A stretch of 29,503 nucleotides of DNA from a virus, in the IMG/VR virus record IMGVR_UViG_3300014962_000003, positions 1 to 29,503 of that record. One strand, 5' to 3'. Under the pieces are notes generated by a model. It searched no databases. It had not been told where the DNA came from and saw only the letters and a program-made list of their open reading frames with translations. How positions within the stretch are numbered: position 1 is the stretch's first letter; each line of letters opens with the position of its first letter. Both the position numbers and the translations under genes were made by a program. Of the stretch, positions 5,519 through 14,947 are shown piece after piece.

Positions 5519-5956
5519 ATGGGTAGACCGGCTAAACCGATTGAGCAGAAGCTGATGCAGGGGAATCCTGGTAAGCGGGCTTTATATACGAGTGATGCAC
5601 TTGCGCCGCTCGAGTATGGCTATGTTTCGCCGCCTGATGATTTGGGTGAGATTGGTCGCGCGTTTTGGGATTCGATTTTTGGTGCGGGCGAGTTGTGGAT
5701 TTCTGTTCGGACTGATACTCAGCTTGTTCATTTGGTTTGTTTGCAGCTTGACCGTCGTGCGATGTTGGCTGAGTTGTTTGTTGCTGATCCGGCTGACCGT
5801 AAGGTGAACATGAGTTTGTTGGAGACTGAGCGTGAGATTACGCGCGGTTTGTCGATGCTTGGTTTTTCACCGGCTGACCGTACTCGTCTTGGTTTGGTGA
5901 GTGCTAAGACTAAGAGTAAGTTGCAGGAGCTTCTCGAGGCGAAGAATGCTGGCTAG
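5519..5956 (+). CDS. terS: Terminase small subunit (P27 family-like).
   Basis: MGRPAKPIEQKLMQGNPGKRAL is the typical P27-family N-terminus. Sits directly upstream of, and overlaps, terL. Confidence 0.8.
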   Translation: MGRPAKPIEQKLMQGNPGKRALYTSDALAPLEYGYVSPPDDLGEIGRAFWDSIFGAGELWISVRTDTQLVHLVCLQLDRRAMLAELFVADPADRKVNMSLLETEREITRGLSMLGFSPADRTRLGLVSAKTKSKLQELLEAKNAG

Positions 5957-7472
5957 TTGGCCGCCGCTTTATTTGACTCCTGTCGCTGATGATGCGCTTG
6001 AGCGGTCTGATGGTAAGTGGGCTTCTGCGTTTGCTGAGGCGTTTGGTTCGATTGGTAAGGATGGTATTGCTGGTCGCGCTGGTGAGCCTCTCGTTTTGCG
6101 TGATTGGCAGCGGTCTTTGCTGGATTGTTTGTATGCGCGTGATGAGTCGGGCGGCTATGTGGCGCGTACTGCTCTGATTGGTATGCCACGCAAGAATGGT
6201 AAGAGTGCGCTTTCGAGTGCTGGTATTGCTATTTATTCGCTGATGGCTGAGGGTGTGCAGGGTGCTGAAGTGATTGTTGCTGCGGCTGAGAAGGAACAGG
6301 CGCGGATTGTTTTCGGTGAGGCTAAAAGAATGGTCGAGTCAAGCGAGCTTGCTGATGAGGTGCAGATTTTTCGTGACTCTATCTATGTGCCTTCGACTCA
6401 AAGCGTGATGCGGGTTGTTTCAAGTGAGAGTTACAGCAAGGAAGGTTATTCCCCCAGCAGGATTATTCTTGATGAACTCCACGCGCACCGCGACCGTACT
6501 TTGTTTGATGTGTTTTCACTGGCTATGGGTAACCGTGGTTCGCTCGCCCAGTTGGTCGCTATCACGACGGCCGGCGTGAAGTCTGATATTACGGGTCAAG
6601 ACTCAATTGCTTATTCGCTGTATCAGTATGGCAAGAAGGTTGCTAACGGTGAAGTAATTGACCCTAGCTTTTTCATGGCGTGGTGGGAAGCACCTGAGTC
6701 TATGCCTTATGACAAGCCTGAAACTTGGGCTGTCGCCAATCCTGGTTTTAATGACTTAGTGGCTGAGGATGATTTCGCGTCGGCGGTGTTGCGTACTCCT
6801 GAACATGAGTTTCGCACTAAGCGCCTGAATCAGTGGGTGAATGTGAAGAATGCTTGGCTTCCTGCGGGTGCGTGGGAGAACCTTGCTGAGGATGTTGAGC
6901 TGCTCGAGGATGACGACTATGTGATTGGGTTTGACGGTTCGTTCAAAAATGACTCAACCGCGGTGGTTGGCGTTATTGCGCCACGCTTTGAAGGCGATGT
7001 GTACCGTGCTTTTAAGATTGCGGCGTGGGAGAAAGATTTCACCATTGATGATGATTTCTGGATTGTCGATAAGCAGGAAGTGGCGAATACGGTTATCGAG
7101 TTTGTGCGGGCGCACCCGAACTGTCGTGAACTCGCCGCTGACCCCTCTTTTTGGCAAGACGAAATGTTCCAGTGGTCACAAGCTGGTATCACTACTGGTG
7201 AATATCCACAAACTTTGCCTCGTCTTGTTCCGGCGACGGCGAAACTTTATGACGCTATCCTCACAGGCCAGTTGAAACATGACGGTGATCCGGCTCTTGC
7301 TCGTCATATGGAGAATTGTATTTTGAAGATGGATTCGAAGGGGAATAGCCGTTTGACGAAGGATTATCGTAACCCTAAATTGAAGATTGACCTTGCGATT
7401 GCTTTGCTGATGGCTTATGACCGCATATCGGCTAGAATAGAACCTGAAGTAGTGCCACAATTTTTCATGTGA
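5946..7472 (+). CDS. terL: Terminase large subunit.
   Basis: Walker A GMPRKNGKSA, Walker B IILDELH, and a C-terminal nuclease-like region. ATG 5946 overlaps the terS stop. Confidence 0.9.
   Translation: MLASWPPLYLTPVADDALERSDGKWASAFAEAFGSIGKDGIAGRAGEPLVLRDWQRSLLDCLYARDESGGYVARTALIGMPRKNGKSALSSAGIAIYSLMAEGVQGAEVIVAAAEKEQARIVFGEAKRMVESSELADEVQIFRDSIYVPSTQSVMRVVSSESYSKEGYSPSRIILDELHAHRDRTLFDVFSLAMGNRGSLAQLVAITTAGVKSDITGQDSIAYSLYQYGKKVANGEVIDPSFFMAWWEAPESMPYDKPETWAVANPGFNDLVAEDDFASAVLRTPEHEFRTKRLNQWVNVKNAWLPAGAWENLAEDVELLEDDDYVIGFDGSFKNDSTAVVGVIAPRFEGDVYRAFKIAAWEKDFTIDDDFWIVDKQEVANTVIEFVRAHPNCRELAADPSFWQDEMFQWSQAGITTGEYPQTLPRLVPATAKLYDAILTGQLKHDGDPALARHMENCILKMDSKGNSRLTKDYRNPKLKIDLAIALLMAYDRISARIEPEVVPQFFM
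7433..7438 (+). promoter_or_regulatory. -10-like box ggcTAGAATag.
   Basis: Member of the G-G/C-TAGAAT motif set (also at 14953 and 16820). Lies 41 nt upstream of ATG 7480. Confidence 0.25.
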
Positions 7473-7479
7473 GGCGAAT

Positions 7480-7611
7480 ATGTCAACCATTCTTCAGATT
7501 GCCGGTGCGGTGGCTGTGACTGTCGGAGTCTCGCTCATCTTTTTACCGGCTGGGATTATTGTTGGTGGTTTGCTTTGCGGTCTTATCGGTTTTGCGTTAG
7601 GTAAGCAGTAA
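7480..7611 (+). CDS. Small membrane protein (43 aa) between terminase and portal.
   Basis: GAGG Shine-Dalgarno upstream. MSTILQIAGAVAVTVGVSLIFLPAGIIVGGLLCGLIGFALGKQ. Its TAA overlaps the portal ATG (TAATG). Confidence 0.5.
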   Translation: MSTILQIAGAVAVTVGVSLIFLPAGIIVGGLLCGLIGFALGKQ

Positions 7612-8972
7612 TGGTTTTCAATCGTCTTTTCGAGTCTCGAGCTGTACCGTATCAGAGTATTTTTGCTGCTGGCGGCAGTATTGATTCTGAAACTCTTTCA
7701 GGTACTTCTGTAAATAGTGACACTGTTTTTCAGGTGAATGCTGTTTTCAGCGCTGTATCTCTTATTGCTGACACTATTTCTACTCTGCCGGTGGATGTGT
7801 TTATTCGCCGCGATGGTGCGCGTTATCCTTTCCGGCCGGCCCCGGCATGGGTGACGAAACCCGATGTTGACTTGCCGCGTGAAGCATTCTATTCGGCTGT
7901 GATTACTTCACTTCTCCTTGACGGTAACGCTTTTGTCAGATTGTTTTCTAATGATCGTGGCGAGATTGTGAACATGGTTGTTTTGAATCCGCACACTGTT
8001 GAAGTGAAGCGGAATGGTCTTGGCCGTCTCATGTTTAAAGTTGAGGGTGAAGATAATCTTGTTTCTTCTGATGAGATGGTTTTTATTCCTGACTTGTTGA
8101 AGCCTGGCACTGTTCGTGGCGTGTCGCGTGTTGAGGCGTTGAAAGAGAACTTTGCTTTGGCGAAGGCGCTCGAGAACTTTAGTGCAACTTTTTTTGGTCA
8201 GGGTACGAATACTGCGGGTGTTATCGAATATCCGGGTAATTTGACGGCTGAACAGGCTCAGGATTTGGCGCGTGGTTTTGATGCGCGGCATAAGGGTTGG
8301 CGTCGTGGTCATAAGACTGGCGTTCTTACTGGCGGTGCAACATTTAAGACAACACAGATTGACCCTGACAAGTCCACTCTTATTGATAGTCGTCGTATGG
8401 CTGTTGAGGATGTTGCCCGCGCGTTTAATATTCCTAGTAATCTGCTTGGCTTGCCGGGAACTAATTCTTATGCGAGTGTTGAGCAAAATAATCTTGCTTG
8501 GGTTACTCATGGTCTGCGGCCTATCGTGCAGAAGCTTGAGAATGGTTTTAGTCCATTGATGTCGCGTTATCCTGGCGGCGAGACAGCGTTTGTCCGTTTC
8601 AACATGGATGGTCTGTTACGGGCTGATATTAATTCGCGTATGAGTGCTTATAGTGTTGGACTTCAAGCGGGATTCTTGAGCATTAATGATGTTCGTGCGC
8701 TTGAGGATTTGCGGCCGGTGGTTGACCCGTCAGCTGATACGGTTCGTGTGCCTCTAGCTAATGTGAACATTGATGCTGCTACTTTGTCTGCCGAGGATAA
8801 GCAGGTTGCGATGGCGCAGAAACTTATTCTCGCTGGCTTTGATCCGGCTGAGACTCTTGCGGCTCTTGGTTTGCCAGCTATCGCGCACACTGGCGTTCCT
8901 TCTACTCAGTTGCAGCCTGTCTCGCAGATTGCTGATGTGGCTGGCGCTGAAAATGTATACGGAGTGAACTAA
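7611..8972 (+). CDS. Portal protein (HK97 family-like).
   Basis: 453 aa, positioned after terL. Sequence character is typical of HK97-type portals (..LLDGNAF.., ..FNIPSNLLG.., ..YSVGLQAGFLSINDVR..). Confidence 0.85.
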   Translation: MVFNRLFESRAVPYQSIFAAGGSIDSETLSGTSVNSDTVFQVNAVFSAVSLIADTISTLPVDVFIRRDGARYPFRPAPAWVTKPDVDLPREAFYSAVITSLLLDGNAFVRLFSNDRGEIVNMVVLNPHTVEVKRNGLGRLMFKVEGEDNLVSSDEMVFIPDLLKPGTVRGVSRVEALKENFALAKALENFSATFFGQGTNTAGVIEYPGNLTAEQAQDLARGFDARHKGWRRGHKTGVLTGGATFKTTQIDPDKSTLIDSRRMAVEDVARAFNIPSNLLGLPGTNSYASVEQNNLAWVTHGLRPIVQKLENGFSPLMSRYPGGETAFVRFNMDGLLRADINSRMSAYSVGLQAGFLSINDVRALEDLRPVVDPSADTVRVPLANVNIDAATLSAEDKQVAMAQKLILAGFDPAETLAALGLPAIAHTGVPSTQLQPVSQIADVAGAENVYGVN

Positions 8973-9328
8973 TGCAAGAGCCAGGCTATCTTGACTTGAA
9001 TTGTTACCAGGGAGCAACTTTCGATTACACGCTGACTTGGCAGACTGGCGGTACACCTGTCAACCTGACAAGCTATACGGCGCGAATGCAGGTACGCGAA
9101 TCATATGACGCTGGTACGGCGATTCTTTCGCTCACTAGCGGTACAGGAATCACGCTTGGTGGTACGGCTGGAACTATCGTCTTGAATGCGGCAGCCACAG
9201 CAACAGCAGCCCTTGATGGCACACCTAATAAACAATATATTTACGATCTCGAGCTTGTGAATGGCTCTGGGGTGGTGACTCGACTCGTTGAGGGTAACTT
9301 CACTGTCTATCCTGAGGTGACTCGATGA
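8972..9328 (+). CDS. Small beta-rich structural protein (Ig-like fibre or decoration-type domain).
   Basis: TAATG coupling to the portal. The pattern QGATFDYTLTW...LTSYTARMQVR...YIYDLELV...G.FTVYPEVT recurs in phage structural proteins. Confidence 0.45.
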   Translation: MQEPGYLDLNCYQGATFDYTLTWQTGGTPVNLTSYTARMQVRESYDAGTAILSLTSGTGITLGGTAGTIVLNAAATATAALDGTPNKQYIYDLELVNGSGVVTRLVEGNFTVYPEVTR

Positions 9329-9900
9329 CTGAAGTTTTAGTTACAGTCACTAAGCCTACTGTCACGGTTGTTTCACCGACTGCCGCGACCGTAACGGTAA
9401 GCGATGTTCACGATAAGATTGTTTTGAACAAATTTGATCCTGCTTATATTTCTGTTTTCGATGCGACTACGCAGACTGACGGCGGCGGAACAACCAGTTC
9501 GCAAATCACTTTCAGTAATCAAGACATAAATTATGATTTTGGTTTCGCTAACAACACTTTTACTTTTTTGCGTTCTGGAACTTTTATGGTGCAATATTCT
9601 GCACAGTTGCGTAATTCAGCAACAAGCATTCAAGATGTCAACATTTTTTTGAAAAAAAATAATCAAGTTGTTCCTGAAAGCTCAACTTATGTTTCAATTC
9701 CTAATTCACATGGTGGTTCACCTGGCGATGCAGTTAGTTCTGTAACTTATGTTCAGCAATTTGAGGTGAATGACACACTCCAATTTTGGTGGTATTCGAC
9801 TAGTACGAGCTGTCAACTTGCTACGATTGCTGCTCAGGCTTCTGGCCCTGAAATGCCGCGTAGTCCTAGCATGATTGTTACGATTGCACAGATTAGTTAG
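9325..9900 (+). CDS. C1q/TNF-like (BclA C-terminal-like) jelly-roll domain protein.
   Basis: ATGA coupling. The C-terminal half GTFMVQYSAQL...VNIFLKKNNQVV...VTYVQQFEVNDTLQFWWY resembles the C1q-like fold pattern. The region is AT-rich (about 32% GC at 9601-9660). Confidence 0.4.
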   Translation: MTEVLVTVTKPTVTVVSPTAATVTVSDVHDKIVLNKFDPAYISVFDATTQTDGGGTTSSQITFSNQDINYDFGFANNTFTFLRSGTFMVQYSAQLRNSATSIQDVNIFLKKNNQVVPESSTYVSIPNSHGGSPGDAVSSVTYVQQFEVNDTLQFWWYSTSTSCQLATIAAQASGPEMPRSPSMIVTIAQIS

Positions 9901-9908
9901 GAAAGATT

Positions 9909-11216
9909 GTGCCTTATTACATTGAGCAGGGTTGTGATGGTAAACCGGAATGGTGGGCTGTCAAAGATATTGCTGGCGAACAGTTCGGATGCCACGCGAC
10001 TAAACAGGATGCTATTGACCAGGGTGTTGCAATTTCGCTTGCCGATAATGAGCCTTTTCTAGGCGAAAATAAACCTGAAGATCGTAATGCTGATGGTGAA
10101 CCGATTATTGTCTGCGATATTGATGGCACTCTTATTCAGGGCGGGGCGCGGGTTGAGCGTGTTTGGTCTTATGTTGAGGATGCTGAGGGTGCGCTGTTTA
10201 TTGTGACTGGCCGGCCTGAGAATGAACGGTCTGATACTGAAAGCCAGTTGGCTGACCTTGATATTGAGTATTCACGGCTGATTATGAATGATGGCTCTAC
10301 GGCGGATAGTGCCGAATATAAGAAAGCTACGGCCGAGAAGCTGCTTGAGACTTATGATGTTGTTTTGGCTGTCGAGAATGATGCTAAAACTTTGCGCTAC
10401 TATCGTGAGCTTGGCATTGATGCTGTAGACCCTGCCGATATTCCTGCAACAGCTTCGGCTGGTAAACTGGGCAAGTACCGTTCGAAGGATGAATTAGTGA
10501 ATAAGTTTGAAACTCGTATTAGTGCGGCCGAGTTTGAGGTTCGTGAAGAAGCTGATGGTATGCACTTCAGCGGCTATGCTGCCGTTTTTAATTCTCCTTC
10601 TGAGCCGCTACCGTTTACTGAACGGATTGCTCCTGGCGCTTTCAAGCGTTCACTTCGCGCCCGTAACGACATTAAGCTTTTATGGAATCACGACACTAGC
10701 GAGGTTTTGGGTTCTACTCGCGCTAAAACTTTGAGCCTGTTTGAGGATGAGCGTGGTTTGCGTGTTGAGGCTATGTTGCCGAACACTCAGCGGGGTCGTG
10801 ATACTGCCGAGCTGTTGCGTCGTGGCGATGTAGATTCTATGTCTTTCGGTTTCTCGGTTATCAAAGATTCTTGGTCTGCTGACGGTAACGAGCGCACACT
10901 TAATTCTGTTCGTTTGCATGAGGTTTCGGTTGTGGCTTTTCCGGCTTACAGTGCGACGGCTGGCACAACTTCTGTCCGTTCGCTTGATAAAGTTGCGACT
11001 CGTGCCGAGGTTGACGCTGATCAGCTTGCGGCTGCCCTCGATAAGATTGAGGCGGGCGAAGATATTACGCAAGATGAGCGGACTATTCTTTCACAAGTGA
11101 TTGATAAATTGTCGCCTGAACTTCATCTCGAGCCTGAACCAGAGCAGGGTGATGTTGCTAATCTTGGTTTGTTGGCTTTGAAAAAGAAGCGTCTTGAAAT
11201 GCTTAAGGGCATCTAA
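9909..11216 (+). CDS. Fusion protein: DUF2188-like N-terminus, HAD (Pnkp-type) phosphatase domain, HK97-family prohead maturation protease, and a C-terminal coiled/targeting tail.
   Basis: GTG start after the AGGAAAG Shine-Dalgarno. HAD motifs: IVCDIDGTL, FIVTGRPE, EYKKATAEK and LAVENDAKTLRYYRELGI. Protease motifs: FSGYAAVFN, LLWNHD, VLGST, SMSFGF and EVSVVAFPAY. Confidence 0.75.
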   Translation: MPYYIEQGCDGKPEWWAVKDIAGEQFGCHATKQDAIDQGVAISLADNEPFLGENKPEDRNADGEPIIVCDIDGTLIQGGARVERVWSYVEDAEGALFIVTGRPENERSDTESQLADLDIEYSRLIMNDGSTADSAEYKKATAEKLLETYDVVLAVENDAKTLRYYRELGIDAVDPADIPATASAGKLGKYRSKDELVNKFETRISAAEFEVREEADGMHFSGYAAVFNSPSEPLPFTERIAPGAFKRSLRARNDIKLLWNHDTSEVLGSTRAKTLSLFEDERGLRVEAMLPNTQRGRDTAELLRRGDVDSMSFGFSVIKDSWSADGNERTLNSVRLHEVSVVAFPAYSATAGTTSVRSLDKVATRAEVDADQLAAALDKIEAGEDITQDERTILSQVIDKLSPELHLEPEPEQGDVANLGLLALKKKRLEMLKGI

Positions 11217-11572
11217 TGGATATTGAAGAATGGGATTTGCTCAACGAGCGTCAACAAGAACAAGCTGAAAATTATACAGAACTTGTTTTGAAGTTCGATA
11301 TGTTCGATCAGTCGTCTGGTGCTGATGGGGCGCATTATGCACCGGCTGATAAAAACCCTTTTAAGGCTGATGGTTTGATATGCCAGAATTGTGTTTTCTT
11401 TAATGAAGAAAATAATCAGTGTCAGATTGTTGCGGGCATGATTGAGCCTGAGGCTGTTTGTAAACTTTGGATTATTCCTGAAGCGTCTATTGTTTCTGCT
11501 CAAGCTAGTGCTGACGCTATGCGTAAACTTGATATGAAGCGGCGTAGATTGGATTTGCTGAAAAGCATTTAG
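11216..11572 (+). CDS. Cys4 (putative metal-binding) head-assembly-region protein.
   Basis: TAATG coupling. CQNCVFFNEENNQCQIVAGMIEPEAVCKLW gives C-x2-C-x9-C-x13-C. The C-terminus MKRRRLDLLKSI parallels the protease C-terminus. Confidence 0.55.
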   Translation: MDIEEWDLLNERQQEQAENYTELVLKFDMFDQSSGADGAHYAPADKNPFKADGLICQNCVFFNEENNQCQIVAGMIEPEAVCKLWIIPEASIVSAQASADAMRKLDMKRRRLDLLKSI

Positions 11573-11621: not shown

Positions 11622-11701
11622 GGGGCTGAATAGGTTTCGAAGATATGTAAAACCCCACGAGGGCAACTGTCTGACGCGAGTTCGACTCTCGCCAGCTCCA
11701 C
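11622..11701 (+). ncRNA. tmRNA-like tRNA-like domain (mini-tmRNA; acceptor and T arm only, no mRNA-like domain).
   Basis: GGGGCUG pairs with CAGCUCC (7 bp, with a G3:U pair), then discriminator A. T arm is GCGAG-UUCGACU-CUCGC. The 5' GGGGCUGAAUAGGUUUCGA and 3' GACGCGAGUUCGACUCUCGCCAGCUCCAC resemble the conserved tmRNA termini. No anticodon arm can be drawn. Confidence 0.65.
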
Positions 11702-11727
11702 TGAATACTGAGTATATATATTCGGGG

Positions 11728-11733: not shown

Positions 11734-11823
11734 GTAAATGTCGATGTGAGTAAGCTCTGCGATTTCCTTTTTAGGTTGAGTGTAAGCACCGCCGACAAAT
11801 CAAACTATTTGGAGTTATTTCTG

Positions 11824-12942
11824 ATGAGTGAGTTCATTAAAACTCAGCAGGAGCTTCGCGCAAACCTCGTATCTCAAATGCAGGAAGCACTTGATGTTGC
11901 TGAGGAGCGCGGCGGGCTTGATGCTGAAACGACCGCTAAAGTTGAGGCTATTGAGGCTGACATTCGTAAAGCTTCTGAGGCTATCGCCGTAGCTGAACGC
12001 CACGAGGAGCGCAAGGCTGAAGCTGCTGTTGCTGCTCGCGGTTTCATGCCTGTTGAGGAAGCTCGTGGAGATGCAGACATTTTCCGCGCACTTGCTAACG
12101 GTGAAATGCGTAACCACAAGTTCGAACAGCGTGCAACACTTGTTCCTGCTACCGCAACTGTTCCCGTTTCGTTCCTTGACCGTGTTTACGGTCTGGCTCG
12201 TCTCGTTGGCCCGATGCTTGATGTGGCTGAGGTTATCCAGCGTTCTTCCGGTAACGATCTTCGTATCCCGGTTTACACTGGCTTCTCGACTGCTACGGCT
12301 TCGTCTGCTGGTTCAGCAATTAGTGAAAGCAACCCGACATTTGACAGCATCCTTCTTCAGCCTGTGAAGATGGGCTTCATTGTTCCGATTGCTAACGAGC
12401 TTATTTCTGACGCTGGCTTTGATATTGAAGCTGTTATTGCTGAACAAGCTGGTAACGCTATCGGTTACGCTGTGAACGGTACGGCAACTTCTGTTCTTGT
12501 TGCTGCTGCTGGTTCTGGTGTTACCGCTTCGAGCGCAACCGCTATCTCGGCTGACAACCTCATTGATCTGGCTTACTCGGCCGATGGCGCTATCCGTCGT
12601 CGCCCAGGTGTCGGTTACATGGCTAACGGTTCGACCATTGGCGCTATCCGCAAGCTGAAGGATACTGCTGGCAACTACCTTTACCAGGTGGGCGTTGGAC
12701 AACCTGACACTTTCGCTGGTTTCGCTATCTACGAGAACCCTGCTCTCGACTCGGTTGCTACCGGCAAGAAAGCTGTTCTGTTCGGTGACTTCAAGAGCCA
12801 CAAGATCACGACCACCGGTCTTGATGTTGCCACCTCGGTTGACGCTTACTTCGCAAACGATGTAACGGCATACCGCTTCACTTACCGTGTCGCTTCTGGC
12901 CTAAGCCACAGCGGCCATGTTAAGTACCTGCTCCAGCCGTAA
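11824..12942 (+). CDS. Major capsid protein, HK97 fold, with an N-terminal delta (scaffold-like) domain.
   Basis: GGAG Shine-Dalgarno before ATG 11824. Coiled N-terminus TQQELRANLVSQMQEALDVAEERG...AIEADIRKASEA, then a typical HK97 body. A strong terminator follows. GTG 11746 is the longest start but less likely. Confidence 0.88.
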   Translation: MSEFIKTQQELRANLVSQMQEALDVAEERGGLDAETTAKVEAIEADIRKASEAIAVAERHEERKAEAAVAARGFMPVEEARGDADIFRALANGEMRNHKFEQRATLVPATATVPVSFLDRVYGLARLVGPMLDVAEVIQRSSGNDLRIPVYTGFSTATASSAGSAISESNPTFDSILLQPVKMGFIVPIANELISDAGFDIEAVIAEQAGNAIGYAVNGTATSVLVAAAGSGVTASSATAISADNLIDLAYSADGAIRRRPGVGYMANGSTIGAIRKLKDTAGNYLYQVGVGQPDTFAGFAIYENPALDSVATGKKAVLFGDFKSHKITTTGLDVATSVDAYFANDVTAYRFTYRVASGLSHSGHVKYLLQP

Positions 12943-13103: not shown

Positions 13104-14309
13104 ATGGGCAAACCTACTTTTGAAAAACTTTCTGGCGCTATTTCTCTCGTCTCTAACACTCCTGGGATGCCGACTGGTTACGGTCAGCAGGGCGAATATT
13201 TGGTTGAGCGTATGTTGCGCCACAACCTTGATGTTGCCGTGCTATCTAATTATGGGCATGAAGGTACTTTGACGACTCTTGACATTGGGGGTAAATCTAT
13301 TCCGCATTATCCTCGAGGGTTGAAACAGTATAGCGAGGATGTGATTCGTGCCTACCATCTGGATTTTACGAGCCAGTTCCCGAATAAGAAGAATGCTGTT
13401 TTTACTCTTTATGATGTGTGGGTTTACGATAATCTGCCGAAACCTGACGAGTTTGATGTGCCGATTATTTCGTGGGTGCCGCTGGATCATGTTTCTTTAC
13501 CGCCGCTGGTTCACAAGTTTTTATTGCGTGAGAATGTTCAGGCTGTCACTATGTCTCCACATGGTCAACGACAACTTGAACAGGCGGGTATTGATTCGAT
13601 TTATATTCCGCACGGTGTCGATTTGAAAGTGTATAAGCCGACAGAGTTTATGTCTGATGGTTCGACGGTGCGCGAATATTTGGATATTGGCGGCGAGTTC
13701 CTTGTTGGTATGGTTGCGGCGAATAAGGCGAATGGTCTGGTTCATCGTAAAGCGTATGCTGAGCAGTTGCTTGCGTTCAGTATGTTTTTGCAGAAGAAGC
13801 CTGACGCGAAACTTTATATTCATGCTGAGGCTTCTGCGTCGATGGGCGGGTTTGATTTGCCAGCTTTGGTGAAGGCTTGTGGTATTCCTGAAGGTTCAGT
13901 TATTTTCCCTGACCCGTTAGCTCATAGGCTTGGGTTTAGTCAGCAGGATTTGGCAGCACTATATACAAGTTTTGATGTTCTTCTGCATGCCGGTTATGGT
14001 GAGGGTTTTGGAGTTTGTGGGGTTGAAGCTCAAGCGTGTGGTACGAGGGTTATTACTTCTGATTGGGCTGCTACCGCAGATTTGGCTTCTGAGGATTCGT
14101 GGCTTGTTCCTGGTTCTCCGTGGTGGGATGAGCCTCAAAAGTCATGGATGCAGATTCCGAATATTAATGCGATTGCTCAGGCTTTGGAGATGGCTTCTGA
14201 GATGGAGCGTGGCCCATCTGAGTATGCTCTCGAGTTTGCGAAACAGTTTGATGTTGAGACTGTCTGGCATTGGCGTTGGCTACCGTATTTGAGAAAGATG
14301 TTTAAATGA
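13104..14309 (+). CDS. Glycosyltransferase, GT-B fold (GT4/GT1-like).
   Basis: C-terminal EGFGVCGVEAQACGTRVITSD is the E-x7-E retaining-GT signature. 401 aa. Confidence 0.75.
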   Translation: MGKPTFEKLSGAISLVSNTPGMPTGYGQQGEYLVERMLRHNLDVAVLSNYGHEGTLTTLDIGGKSIPHYPRGLKQYSEDVIRAYHLDFTSQFPNKKNAVFTLYDVWVYDNLPKPDEFDVPIISWVPLDHVSLPPLVHKFLLRENVQAVTMSPHGQRQLEQAGIDSIYIPHGVDLKVYKPTEFMSDGSTVREYLDIGGEFLVGMVAANKANGLVHRKAYAEQLLAFSMFLQKKPDAKLYIHAEASASMGGFDLPALVKACGIPEGSVIFPDPLAHRLGFSQQDLAALYTSFDVLLHAGYGEGFGVCGVEAQACGTRVITSDWAATADLASEDSWLVPGSPWWDEPQKSWMQIPNINAIAQALEMASEMERGPSEYALEFAKQFDVETVWHWRWLPYLRKMFK

Positions 14310-14947
14310 TTCCTGTTTTGGGTGTGCCAACTTTGACCCGGCACGATTTGTGTGAACGGTTGCTCGAGTCGATTGATTACCCTGTTGAGCATTTGGTTAT
14401 CGTCAATAATGGTGATCCAGCGTGGCGAGCTGTGAAGCCGAAACTTGTGGAGCGGTTGAGTCAGATTGATATGCCAGCTAATCAGGGTGTGGCGGGGTCG
14501 TGGAATCTGATTATTAAGGCGACTCCTTTCGCACCGTATTGGCTGATTACTGGGGATGATACTTGGTTTCCTGAAGGATCACTCGAGGAGATTGCTTGTA
14601 AAGCTGGCCCTGATGCTTTATATCATTTGCAGGTTGCGCCGAAATGGGCTTCTTTTGCTATCGGCGAGGATGTGGTGCGTGAGGCTGGGCTTGCGTGTGA
14701 GCTTTTCCATCCAGCATATTTTGAGGATAATGACTGGCAGCGTCGTATAGATGAGGTTGCTGAAACTAAATATCTTGATATTCCGGTTCATCACGACAAT
14801 AGTTCTACTTTGAAGAGTGGTTTTGAATATAAGAACGGTTCTACTTTTGTAGCGAATATGGCCGTATATGAGCGGCGGCGTGAAGATGGCGTGTCTACTG
14901 GTGGCGAATGGGATTTGGATATTCGCCGCACGAACAGTTGGGATTGA
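14306..14947 (+). CDS. Glycosyltransferase family 2-like protein.
   Basis: ATGA coupling. N-terminus PVLGVPTLTRHDLCERLLESIDYPVEHLVIVNNG and a D-D motif (ITGDDTWF), as in GT-A enzymes of actinophages. Confidence 0.6.
   Translation: MIPVLGVPTLTRHDLCERLLESIDYPVEHLVIVNNGDPAWRAVKPKLVERLSQIDMPANQGVAGSWNLIIKATPFAPYWLITGDDTWFPEGSLEEIACKAGPDALYHLQVAPKWASFAIGEDVVREAGLACELFHPAYFEDNDWQRRIDEVAETKYLDIPVHHDNSSTLKSGFEYKNGSTFVANMAVYERRREDGVSTGGEWDLDIRRTNSWD

Follow-up and report, generated by a model that had tools for sequence, protein, structure and literature searches.

The window examined here, a stretch of viral DNA of 29,503 nucleotides, carries on its plus strand a gene at positions 9909–11216 that opens with GTG and runs for 435 codons plus stop, containing neither an internal stop nor a frameshift. 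The GTG start is supported by the conservation of the initial residues M-P-Y in at least 107 of 121 aligned homologs. The encoded protein consists of a conserved N-terminal domain (residues 1–55, positions 9909–10073), a minimal capless HAD phosphatase module (residues 59–180, positions 10083–10448), a disordered linker (residues 182–206, positions 10452–10526), an HK97-family S78 prohead serine protease (residues 207–363, positions 10527–10997) and, as a candidate targeting tail, a helical C-terminal region (residues 364–416) with a terminal amphipathic helix (residues 417–433, LLALKKKRLEMLKGI), which together occupy positions 10998–11213. The gene sits between those of the portal protein (7611–8972, plus strand; PF04860, E = 2e-71) and of an HK97-type major capsid protein whose N-terminus forms a delta or scaffold region (11746–12942, plus strand; PF05065 at residues 137–394); translation of the capsid gene probably begins at the ATG at 11824, and the homolog in phiPsal1 is annotated 'HK97 including scaffold/propeptide'. 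Between the fusion gene and the capsid gene lie the gene of a weakly HiPIP-like, Cys-rich protein of 118 residues with the C-terminal end ...KLDMKRRRLDLLKSI (11216–11572, plus strand) and a CDS-less mini-tmRNA of 82 nt, of which Rfam recognizes the tRNA-like domain (11622–11703); ARAGORN found no tRNA near the gene. The order portal, protease, capsid is shared by the related loci L001, L002, L003, L005, L007 and L009, and synteny is kept in five independent loci that bear the fusion (L002, L003, L005, L007 and L009).

Residue conservation was counted in an alignment of 121 sequences that includes the 120 best database homologs, which are metagenomic. All 120 present the same fusion of N-terminal domain, HAD module and protease, and they were drawn from independent JGI, ENA, Logan and NCBI assemblies that share the fused reading frame. 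The sequence-only reading, which had proposed one unbroken frame joining a phosphatase to a prohead protease, is thus borne out, and the survey of relatives that it called for shows the fusion to be real. The mean pairwise identity amounts to 63% in the N-terminal domain, 57% in the HAD module, 25% in the linker and 67% in the protease.

The protease assignment made from the sequence was confirmed by Pfam Peptidase_S78 (PF04586; residues 209–363, E = 4e-51, 173.8 bits against a cut-off of 21), by the HK97 proheadase model TIGR01543 (132.1 bits against 59) and by invariant His and Ser residues, H261, S312 and S340 being found in 121 of 121 sequences and E338 in 120. The protein resembles the gp4-type protease of HK97 (MEROPS S78) in these residues, in the location of its gene between a portal gene and a capsid gene bearing a delta domain, and in a C-terminal extension that ends in a conserved helix. 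It differs from gp4 by about 200 additional N-terminal residues that fold into an enzyme and a second domain, and by a tail motif common to a second, non-protease protein of the head module. The C-terminal region is predicted to be helical, with a disordered break at residues 409–416 before the terminal K-rich amphipathic helix. In HK97 the C-terminus of the protease reportedly targets it into the prohead and, by analogy, residues 417–433 are a candidate capsid-targeting peptide.

The N-terminal domain is predicted by AlphaFold2 to comprise three strands and one helix with a pLDDT of about 90 or higher, and its conserved residues include C9, C28 and H29. The segment noticed from the sequence alone is therefore a conserved and confidently folded domain; the label DUF2188 proposed for it did not hold, the profile (PF09954) reaching 13.8 bits at residues 15–43 (E = 0.064) against a cut-off of 22. 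The domain is retained in phiPsal1, which is devoid of the HAD module, and in P0254, which is devoid of the protease, and cargo polyproteins with and without protease both begin with it.

For the HAD module, PF03767 is the sole Pfam HAD family above its gathering threshold, with 29.9 bits for the whole protein and 33.5 bits for the isolated domain (cut-off 27), the match being limited to profile positions 130–202 of 230. The HAD_PNKP profile (PF25109) stays below its cut-off of 27.6 with 21.9 and 26.5 bits, respectively; some relatives exceed this threshold, such as P0128 at 38.4 bits. Compared with PDB sequences, the HAD family profile matched Pnkp1 (4xrp, E = 7e-6), the single-sequence search returned nothing except Pnkp1 at E = 0.95, and the matches in PHROG carry the annotation 'polynucleotide kinase' (phrog_415, E = 1.5e-15). 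An AlphaFold2 model of residues 1–205 (pLDDT 87) was used for a Foldseek search, in which 33 of the 33 PDB matches at E ≤ 1e-3 are HAD-fold proteins. The best of these are the phosphatase domain of T4 Pnkp (1rrc, E = 7e-7; 5uj0_A, target TM-score 0.70 and rmsd 2.2 Å) and Pnkp1; 4xru_D matched with an rmsd of 2.4 Å. The HAD fold is thus well predicted and Pnkp phosphatase domains are its nearest neighbours, with the Nir2 LNS2 domain (lipid-phosphate) and acid-phosphatase folds scoring nearly as well.

The set of HAD motifs listed in the earlier reading was found with the same residues and is conserved throughout the alignment. Motif I (D70-I-D72-G-T74) retains D70 and D72 in 120 and T74 in 117 of 121 sequences, motif II (T100-G-R102) retains T100 in 119 and R102 in 120, and K138 of motif III is present in 120; in motif IV, E156 occurs in 114 sequences (with D in six more) and N157 in 120, while position 158 alternates between D (78 sequences) and N (42). 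The catalytic residues are therefore about 95–99% conserved across the 120 homologs and, in 145 far more divergent representatives, the D, D, T, R and K are kept in at least 90%. Such conservation of catalytic residues, together with identities of 57% in the HAD module and 67% in the protease against 25% in the intervening linker, indicates purifying selection on an enzyme, and the HAD module is, judged by its residues, apparently a catalytically competent phosphatase.

The resemblance to T4 Pnkp that had been pointed out for the last motif holds for the fold and is limited in its details. Like T4 PseT and Capnocytophaga Pnkp1, the module has a capless HAD core of about 120–140 residues with DxDGT, an (S/T)GR motif II and a Lys as motif III; its motif IV is acidic and leads into an xxxL/VxxxY/WRxxG helix. 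Unlike T4 Pnkp, it is not joined to a kinase domain in the window protein, its motif IV reads E-N-[D/N] instead of D-D, and it forms part of a late head protein, whereas the T4 protein is an early cytoplasmic enzyme. The substrate-binding residues of T4 Pnkp, which we take to be R176, R213 and D254, were placed on the window protein by visual comparison and with the help of the HMM alignment rather than by superposition; on this correspondence the equivalent of R213 (R102) is present in 120 and that of D254 (D133) in 99 of 121 sequences, while position 81, which would correspond to R176, carries R in 73 sequences and L in 42 and is thus unconserved. Owing to the different motif IV and the unconserved R176 equivalent, the substrate is not inferable from this likeness. 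The Asp/Glu-Asn pair of motif IV recalls the GDN motif of class B and C acid phosphatases; unlike these and the plant vegetative storage protein (PF03767), the module has neither signal peptide nor cap domain, and its structural similarity to class B/C enzymes is weaker than that to Pnkp.

The linker between the HAD module and the protease is predicted to be disordered (pLDDT below 50) and is an insertion hot spot, homologs carrying insertions of 70–216 residues at positions 183/190. Cargo modules are swapped at two fixed linker positions, residue 56 and residues 183/190, and polypeptides of relatives comprise three to five modules; the set shuffled within the clade consists of the HAD module, a 'module A', an SH3-like module, the Cys-rich module and ferritin. 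In phiPsal1, which has the N-terminal domain, the protease and the tail in common with the window protein, the Cys-rich module and 'module A' are found in place of the HAD module. The predicted disorder would be compatible with the release by autoproteolysis that had been suggested from the sequence, making residues 182–206 a candidate proteolytic release site. An internal start that would yield free protease, AAGGA-N7-GTG at V197 just before ETR, found no support, neither start codons nor Shine-Dalgarno-like sequences being conserved there in five relatives.

The tail motif was identified in 111 of 120 proteases and in 34 of 115 Cys-rich proteins, and a comparison of 1041 six-frame segments, taken from the window and from six related loci, showed it to be confined to these two ORFs. 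The Cys-rich module, a separate downstream ORF in the window, is fused into the protease in relatives, and the Cys-rich protein, which bears a tail copy of its own, is probably a second, co-packaged cargo. The cargo polyproteins of L008, which are separate from the protease, are devoid of the protease-type tail motif, so the tail can be neither the sole nor a universal determinant of packaging.

We further analyzed the distribution of the HAD module by searching 1.84 billion representatives with its profile, which yielded 2468 matches at E ≤ 1e-3 and 235 at E ≤ 1e-10; with this number of matching cluster representatives, the module appears widespread in uncultured aquatic phages. Among 50,697 records of cultured phages none contained a close match, the only match being a Streptomyces phage polynucleotide kinase at E = 7e-4. 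A direct fusion of the module to a head protease or to a portal occurs in 40 of the best 145 representatives: 31 contain Peptidase_S78, six the XkdF-type S78_2 and one ClpP, and two are C-terminal fusions to the portal. Within the same 145, seven also have ferritin, two a zeta toxin, two an ADP-ribosyltransferase and one a Nudix domain. Copies not fused to a protease also lie among head genes: in L132 the module follows an S49 protease and is joined to an Ala/Glu/Lys-rich, scaffold-like tail, in L130 it follows an SU10 adaptor, and in L008 a polyprotein of N-terminal domain, HAD, ADP-ribosyltransferase and zeta is encoded between the portal and a stand-alone S78 protease. In some relatives (P0163 and P0254) the HAD module shares one polypeptide with a P-loop kinase of the zeta/AAA_33 type; the zeta-like kinase of P0163 had no match among PDB sequences. 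The attachment of the HAD module to such varied head proteins, its cargo-like neighbours and the shared tail point to a head-packaged cargo.

These observations suggest that the product of the gene is a prohead protease that carries cargo, and that its packaged N-terminal domain and HAD phosphatase would act early in the next host, a reading to which we assign a probability of about 0.55. The S78 protease domain and the C-terminal amphipathic helix would enter the assembling procapsid in the manner of the HK97 gp4 C-terminus, with the capsid protein, which forms the shell, presumably acting as the tail's receptor, and the folded unit of N-terminal domain and HAD module, of about 20 kDa, would be dragged in by the protease. 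Upon completion of the shell, the protease would trim the delta domain of the capsid protein and probably also cut its own linker. The freed unit, too large for escape, would then remain in the head with the DNA and act, most likely at or just after genome delivery into the next host, as a Mg-dependent phosphomonoesterase of the capless Pnkp and class B/C acid-phosphatase type. The Cys-rich neighbour, having the same tail, would probably be packaged together with the fusion. The claim made from the sequence alone that the fusion places an enzyme inside the procapsid is favoured by the comparative evidence, in which the module is attached to head proteases of three classes as well as to the C-termini of portals and to a scaffold-like protein, and by the restriction of the tail motif to the protease and the neighbouring Cys-rich protein. 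Proheads of HK97 and D3 contain about 60–90 copies of the protease each (PMC12749128), and effector domains fused to a capsid-processing peptidase have been read as evidence for packaging in the head (PMC5512222, PMC9503650).

A broader form of this proposal, less probable in our view and put forward tentatively, is that the prohead protease, together with its short C-terminal helix, serves the clade as a general, encapsulin-like cargo loader delivering a toolkit to the next host. This toolkit may include the HAD phosphatase, ferritin, the Cys-rich metal-binding module, the ADP-ribosyltransferase, the zeta-type kinase and Nudix, and the phages concerned may be infectious phages of aquatic actinobacteria with DNA-filled heads. 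Were this correct, the HAD module would represent a previously unrecognised and widespread class of injected phosphatase effectors, and the tail would become a candidate for the ancestor from which the targeting peptides of encapsulins evolved.

It is rather unlikely, in our estimation, that the phosphatase acts in the producing cell or in the procapsid during assembly, for instance by dephosphorylating nucleotides, sugar phosphates or phosphoproteins late in infection, with the fusion merely ensuring late co-expression and stoichiometry and the HAD domain never reaching the next host because it is destroyed or expelled along with fragments of the protease. The HK97 protease reportedly digests itself and its fragments leave the prohead; a cargo joined to such a protease could likewise be degraded. 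The head module of the clade also holds glycosyltransferases, a cytidylyltransferase-like gene and methyltransferases, which makes a sugar-phosphate or nucleotide-sugar phosphatase for virion glycosylation conceivable, and standalone HAD copies are known. Nevertheless, action during assembly leaves unexplained why portal C-termini, a scaffold-like protein and three protease families all carry the module as a fusion, and why it is associated with ADP-ribosyltransferase, zeta-kinase and Nudix effector modules, and tethering inside the shell would bring no gain to a cytoplasmic enzyme.

The function envisaged in the sequence-only reading, a packaged Pnkp-type 3'-phosphatase or 2',3'-cyclic phosphodiesterase that repairs the RNA ends left by anticodon nucleases and is tied to a tRNA-like element 400 bp downstream, now appears improbable. 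The nearest solved folds, the phosphatase domains of T4 Pnkp and Pnkp1, and the PHROG matches to 'polynucleotide kinase' speak for it, and the HAD module joined to a zeta/AAA_33-type kinase in P0163 and P0254 recalls the kinase-phosphatase pair of end healing. Against it stand the sub-threshold HAD_PNKP score, the different motif IV, the unconserved R176 equivalent and the almost equal Foldseek matches to Nir2 LNS2 and acid phosphatases. Moreover, the downstream element is the CDS-less mini-tmRNA, a phage type already known from a mycobacteriophage, for which inhibition of the host tmRNA has been described (PMC11915505). phiPsal1, with a protease devoid of HAD, possesses the element, and four HAD-bearing relatives lack it; its distribution is thus independent of the HAD module in the six loci compared, and the suggested link between the two was rejected. 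A partner for end healing is not visible either, since neither a polynucleotide kinase nor an RNA ligase was detected in the 21 window ORFs scanned with Pfam, a scan that covered all but about a dozen ORFs of at least 90 residues, mostly in the tail region, and that recognized a DnaB-type helicase, HNH, YqaJ, terminase, portal, capsid and glycosyltransferase among the other ORFs.

We give equally little credence to the N-terminal domain and HAD module being a structural or regulatory pro-domain, which keeps the protease inactive or spaced, or a mere filler in which the phosphatase chemistry is incidental. The middle region is indeed replaceable, as the modules found in phiPsal1 illustrate, and modules are inserted, swapped and reordered freely. 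An intact active site disfavours a filler role, however, and each catalytic residue of motifs I–III as well as the Glu and Asn of motif IV is kept in at least 114 of 121 sequences, with the D, D, T, R and K also maintained among the 145 divergent representatives. An assembly or sequencing artefact that hides a stop or frameshift between two genes can practically be dismissed, for although one relative, L008, does have separate cargo and protease genes, the 120 best homologs from independent assemblies show the same fused frame and the synteny of the five fusion-bearing loci is conserved.

Enzyme fusions to head proteases have already been published, and the HAD-protease fusion is a further variant, for which a literature search on the combination of prohead protease and HAD phosphatase retrieved nothing specific. 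As in phage polyvalent proteins (PMC5512222, PMC9503650), effector or enzyme domains are joined to head proteins, and relatives carry ART, zeta and Nudix domains; the window protein has the features by which such proteins are recognized (PMC5512222), namely an effector domain and a head-associated domain in one chain, a setting among virion genes and an assemblin-like peptidase at the C-terminus. With a single enzyme as cargo it would, as far as its domain composition tells, represent the minimal end of the polyvalent or head-packaged effector class. It differs from other polyvalent proteins in being short, in the distinct module set of its clade and in a C-terminal tail that is also present on a separate cargo protein, and a search of PMC5512222 and PMC9503650 turned up no HAD phosphatase as packaged cargo.

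The similarity to encapsulins concerns the HK97-fold shell, a short C-terminal peptide on more than one protein as a candidate cargo mark, and ferritin-like cargo, which is fused to the module in the seven representatives mentioned above. Unlike encapsulins, the head is that of a genuine DNA-packaging phage with terminase, portal and tail genes, and the tail sequence LALKKKKLELL is, to our knowledge, unlike known encapsulin targeting peptides. In concept, the proposed cargo is also comparable to the internal proteins and Alt of T4, enzymes that are packed into the prohead, cleaved by the prohead protease gp21 and ejected with the DNA into the next host. In T4, an N-terminal targeting sequence is borne by separate proteins and the head protease belongs to an unrelated family, whereas the window cargo is covalently joined to the protease.

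If packaged and delivered, the phosphatase would act before any phage gene is expressed and would constitute a new class of virion enzyme, probably with a role in counter-defence or host takeover, and its substrate would indicate the host process or signal concerned. A tail common to the protease and a small separate protein would provide a simple and portable rule for loading HK97-type heads, of use in engineering and with a bearing on the relation between phage assembly and the uptake of cargo by encapsulins. Genes of this kind are today annotated as 'prohead protease' only.

The ORF at 9909..11216 (+) encodes, from a GTG start, a single protein of 435 aa. Its C-terminal half is an HK97-family proheadase (NCBIfam, 132 bits vs. 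a cut-off of 59) with Peptidase_S78 on residues 209–363 (Pfam, E=4e-51), and Pfam HAD families match residues ~66–173. PF03767 is the sole HAD family above its curated threshold (29.9 bits, 33.5 for the isolated domain, vs. 27), HAD_PNKP lying slightly under its cut-off (21.9 bits, 26.5 for the isolated domain, vs. 27.6). This domain placement by Pfam and NCBIfam bears out the three-part make-up (N-domain, phosphatase, protease) proposed in the sequence-only reading, although the name DUF2188 given there to the N-terminus reflects a weak resemblance only (Pfam, 13.8 bits vs. a threshold of 22). The ORF is part of a head module in the order large terminase (5901–7472), portal (7611–8972), two small ORFs, fusion ORF, 118-aa ORF, HK97-type major capsid protein (11746–12942) and glycosyltransferase. 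The two small ORFs separating portal from protease (8972–9328 and 9325–9900 (+), 118 and 191 aa) have counterparts of similar size (about 115 aa and 186–251 aa) at the same place in relatives and give weak β-sandwich matches only (LtfC-like, BclA_C). Directly 5' of the protease domain, an AAGGA-N7-GTG sequence (10488–10499, V197) could be a candidate start for a nested, cargo-free protease, the same arrangement as in lambda C/Nu3; it is not kept in the five relatives compared.

Surveying relatives for fused vs. separate domains, we found that in a collection of 5.8 billion proteins the best 120 matches, which stem from JGI, ENA, Logan and NCBI assemblies, without exception show this type of fusion (120/120), the fullest annotation among them being 'HK97 family phage prohead protease'. 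A single record out of 50,697 deposited phage genomes, Pontimonas phage phiPsal1 (31 kb, circular), aligns along most of the ORF; its protein has the N-domain, the protease and the tail, but differs in the middle and is devoid of the HAD. With the HAD segment as sole query, no close relative was found in the deposited phages. BFVD contains several 'uncultured Caudovirales phage' entries of the same fold, named 'Prohead protease' or 'HAD-like domain containing protein', and gene order is kept in the related contigs compared (26–32 kb). As judged from these sequence comparisons, the fusion is real and common, and confined to uncultured phages.

The AlphaFold2 model of residues 1–205 (pLDDT 87, pTM 0.74) comprises an N-domain of three strands and a helix (residues 1–46), a Rossmannoid HAD core (65–170) and a disordered stretch (182–203). 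In the full-length model (pLDDT 84.7) the protease (207–354) is followed by three helices, a second disordered break (409–416) and a terminal helix (417–433); the pTM of 0.42 indicates two lobes without fixed mutual orientation. Mean pairwise identity over 120 homologs is 63% for the N-domain, 57% for the HAD, 67% for the protease and 65% for the last 15 residues, and 25% for the linker.

All 33 Foldseek matches in the PDB (E<=1e-3) are HAD-fold proteins. Ranking first are the phosphatase domain of T4 Pnkp (1rrc, E=7e-7; 5uj0_A, target TM 0.70, rmsd 2.2 Å) and Pnkp1 from the Pnkp1-Rnl-Hen1 repair complex (4xrp, 4xru), in agreement with the Pnkp likeness noticed earlier; the LNS2 domain of Nir2 and a vegetative storage protein of plants form a second tier. 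Run against PDB sequences, the HAD family profile likewise recovers Pnkp1 (E=7e-6), with class C acid phosphatases next. The catalytic residues, including the Asp pair on which the sequence-only reading relied, are kept in the alignment: D70, D72, R102 and K138 each in 120/121 sequences, T100 in 119/121 and T74 in 117/121; in motif IV, E156 is found in 114/121 (with D in 6 more), N157 in 120/121, and position 158 is taken by D (78) or N (42). Even among 145 much more distant representatives, conservation of both Asp and of the Thr, Arg and Lys does not fall below 90%. Model and conservation together indicate that the HAD domain very probably has phosphatase activity. On the other hand, motif IV is D-D in T4 Pnkp and E-N-[D/N] here, and the position equated with T4 Pnkp R176 varies across the homologs, two differences that stand against naming a substrate from likeness. 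Pfam scans of 21 of the window's ORFs, chiefly outside the tail region, revealed neither a kinase nor a ligase. Given the modelled HAD fold, end healing is a possible role.

Nothing found here supports a link between end healing and the tRNA-like element at 11622–11703 (+), as had been suggested. This 82-nt element, directly 5' of the capsid gene, scores 59.3 bits to the Rfam tmRNA model (RF00023, gathering score 47) and has an acceptor stem with a G3:U pair and a T arm, the ~294-nt mRNA and pseudoknot part being reduced to 7 nt; on these features it is to be read as a CDS-less 'mini-tmRNA', which ARAGORN does not call. It occurs at the equivalent site in phiPsal1 (L001 5569–5650), which has no HAD; a search of four relatives that do carry the HAD did not detect it. 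In IMG/VR, pattern scanning yielded at least 10 further forms of ~78 nt with compensatory T-stem changes (contigs L027, L044, L045, L046, L062, L075, L086, L090, L111 and L118). The CDS-less tmRNA of mycobacteriophage DS6A has been reported as an inhibitor of host tmRNA (PMC11915505).

The strongest argument for packaging is that the HAD is repeatedly tied to prohead-interior proteins in several head-assembly systems. A HAD-only profile matched 2468 proteins at E<=1e-3 (235 at E<=1e-10) among 1.84 billion cluster representatives. Partners in the best 145 of these 2468 are Peptidase_S78 (31, two with the HAD after the protease), XkdF-type (6) and ClpP-type (1) proteases, ferritin (7, e.g. module A-HAD-ferritin-S78 in contig L009), zeta-toxin-like kinase (2), ADP-ribosyltransferase (2) and Nudix (1); two more are portal proteins with C-terminal module A and HAD. 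The ferritin-like domain (PF00210, E down to 5e-18) lies between the HAD and the S78 protease in P0157 / L009 1383–3551 and 6 other representatives; ferritin-like proteins are the classic cargo of encapsulins, and here ferritin is fused within HAD-protease relatives. Locus L008 (2167–5530) encodes a 798-aa Ndom-HAD-ADP-ribosyltransferase-zeta-kinase polyprotein, with the portal on one side and a stand-alone S78 protease on the other, and a second, 321-aa ADP-ribosyltransferase in the same interval. Freshwater actinophage ADP-ribosyltransferases have been interpreted as 'Trojan horse' anti-grazer toxins (PMC6802176); the placement in L008 suggests head-packaged effectors instead. In L132, the place of the scaffold, behind an S49 protease, is taken by a HAD protein of 290 aa whose C-terminal half is Ala/Glu/Lys-rich and coiled-coil-like; in L130 a 135-aa HAD comes after an SU10-type adaptor. 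By their gene neighborhood, the unfused copies of these three loci are head-module genes too.

Insertions in homologs are confined to two sites, after residue 56 and after residue 183/190, and consist of a ~110-aa 'module A' (on the N- or the C-terminal side of the HAD), an SH3-like module or a Cys-rich module; in phiPsal1 the HAD is replaced by the Cys-rich module plus module A. Module A, for which no Pfam match was found, is conserved, with the consensus APAYMRAAARRGLxYYExGxGGDG...TIREARxMAxGxVSxDKWVRIAAWIARHLxDLDxPxAxPxSxxYPSAGVVAHLLWGSG. In protease fusions it stands on either side of the HAD, and it is found at portal C-termini as well (P0010, P0013, P0024, P0075, L001 3809–5263, and portal fusions P0224 and P0238). 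ORFs of ~52–54 aa 3' of the protease in three relatives (L003 11923–12081, L007 4992–5156, L001 5263–5424) start with MAT.EEI and end with ...(E/K)ETR, which matches the nearly invariant E201-T202-R203 at the beginning of the protease domain.

The 118-aa ORF directly 3' of the fusion ORF (11216–11572 (+)) is a free-standing Cys-rich module whose four Cys form the motif C-x2-C ... C ... C and which gives weak matches to HiPIP and CxxCxxCC; the module is fused within the protease in phiPsal1 and P0118. Its C-terminus (KLDMKRRRLDLLKSI) and that of the protease (LLALKKKRLEMLKGI) have in common a K/R-rich amphipathic tail. Counted as a simple motif within the last 24 residues, the tail is present in 111/120 proteases; it occurs in 34/115 Cys-rich homologs, the remaining subgroups ending differently. 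In a six-frame scan of the window and six related loci (1041 stop-to-stop segments of at least 50 aa) the motif appears 11 times, always in a protease or Cys-rich ORF. As Duda, Oh and Hendrix reportedly found in 2013, the HK97 protease is targeted into proheads by its C-terminal part; for this reason we read the tail as a candidate capsid-targeting peptide serving two proteins. The 118-aa protein probably binds metal and is packaged as a second cargo. No protease-type tail is present on the L008 cargo polyproteins that are encoded apart from the protease; in them, this role must fall to the N-domain or to some other feature.

Packaging would proceed by co-assembly into the prohead via protease and tail and cleavage within the disordered linker; the folded N-domain-HAD unit would be retained and act at an early stage of the following infection. 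Protease copies number about 60–90 per prohead in HK97 and D3 (PMC12749128), which would put the cargo at tens of copies. The HK97 genome is 39.7 kb; the genomes of 30–32 kb are smaller and, speculatively, would leave spare head volume if T=7.

The principle of fusing enzymes to head proteins is already known: Iyer et al. described phage 'polyvalent proteins' in 2017 (PMC5512222) and in 2022 Nudix domains fused to MuF, portal and capsid-processing serine peptidase, taken as packaging evidence (PMC9503650). A search of both papers found no HAD phosphatase as packaged cargo, and a literature search for the combination of prohead protease and HAD phosphatase gave nothing specific. New are the kind of cargo, the range of head systems in which it occurs, the shuffled module set, whose ferritin recalls encapsulin cargo, and the tail that recurs on a separate protein. 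The HAD-protease fusion is solid and testable, its importance hinging on substrate and delivery.

Throughout the clade, glycosyltransferase genes separate the capsid gene from the head-tail connector (13104–14309 and 14306–14947 (+) in the window, L001 6979–9351, L002 13447–16949), in relatives additionally with a cytidylyltransferase-like gene, methyltransferases and Glyco_transf_17; this set suggests virion glycosylation. In L003, a tRNA (6213–6284; Rfam, 57.6 bits) lies within a called Mom-like gene adjoining the small terminase.
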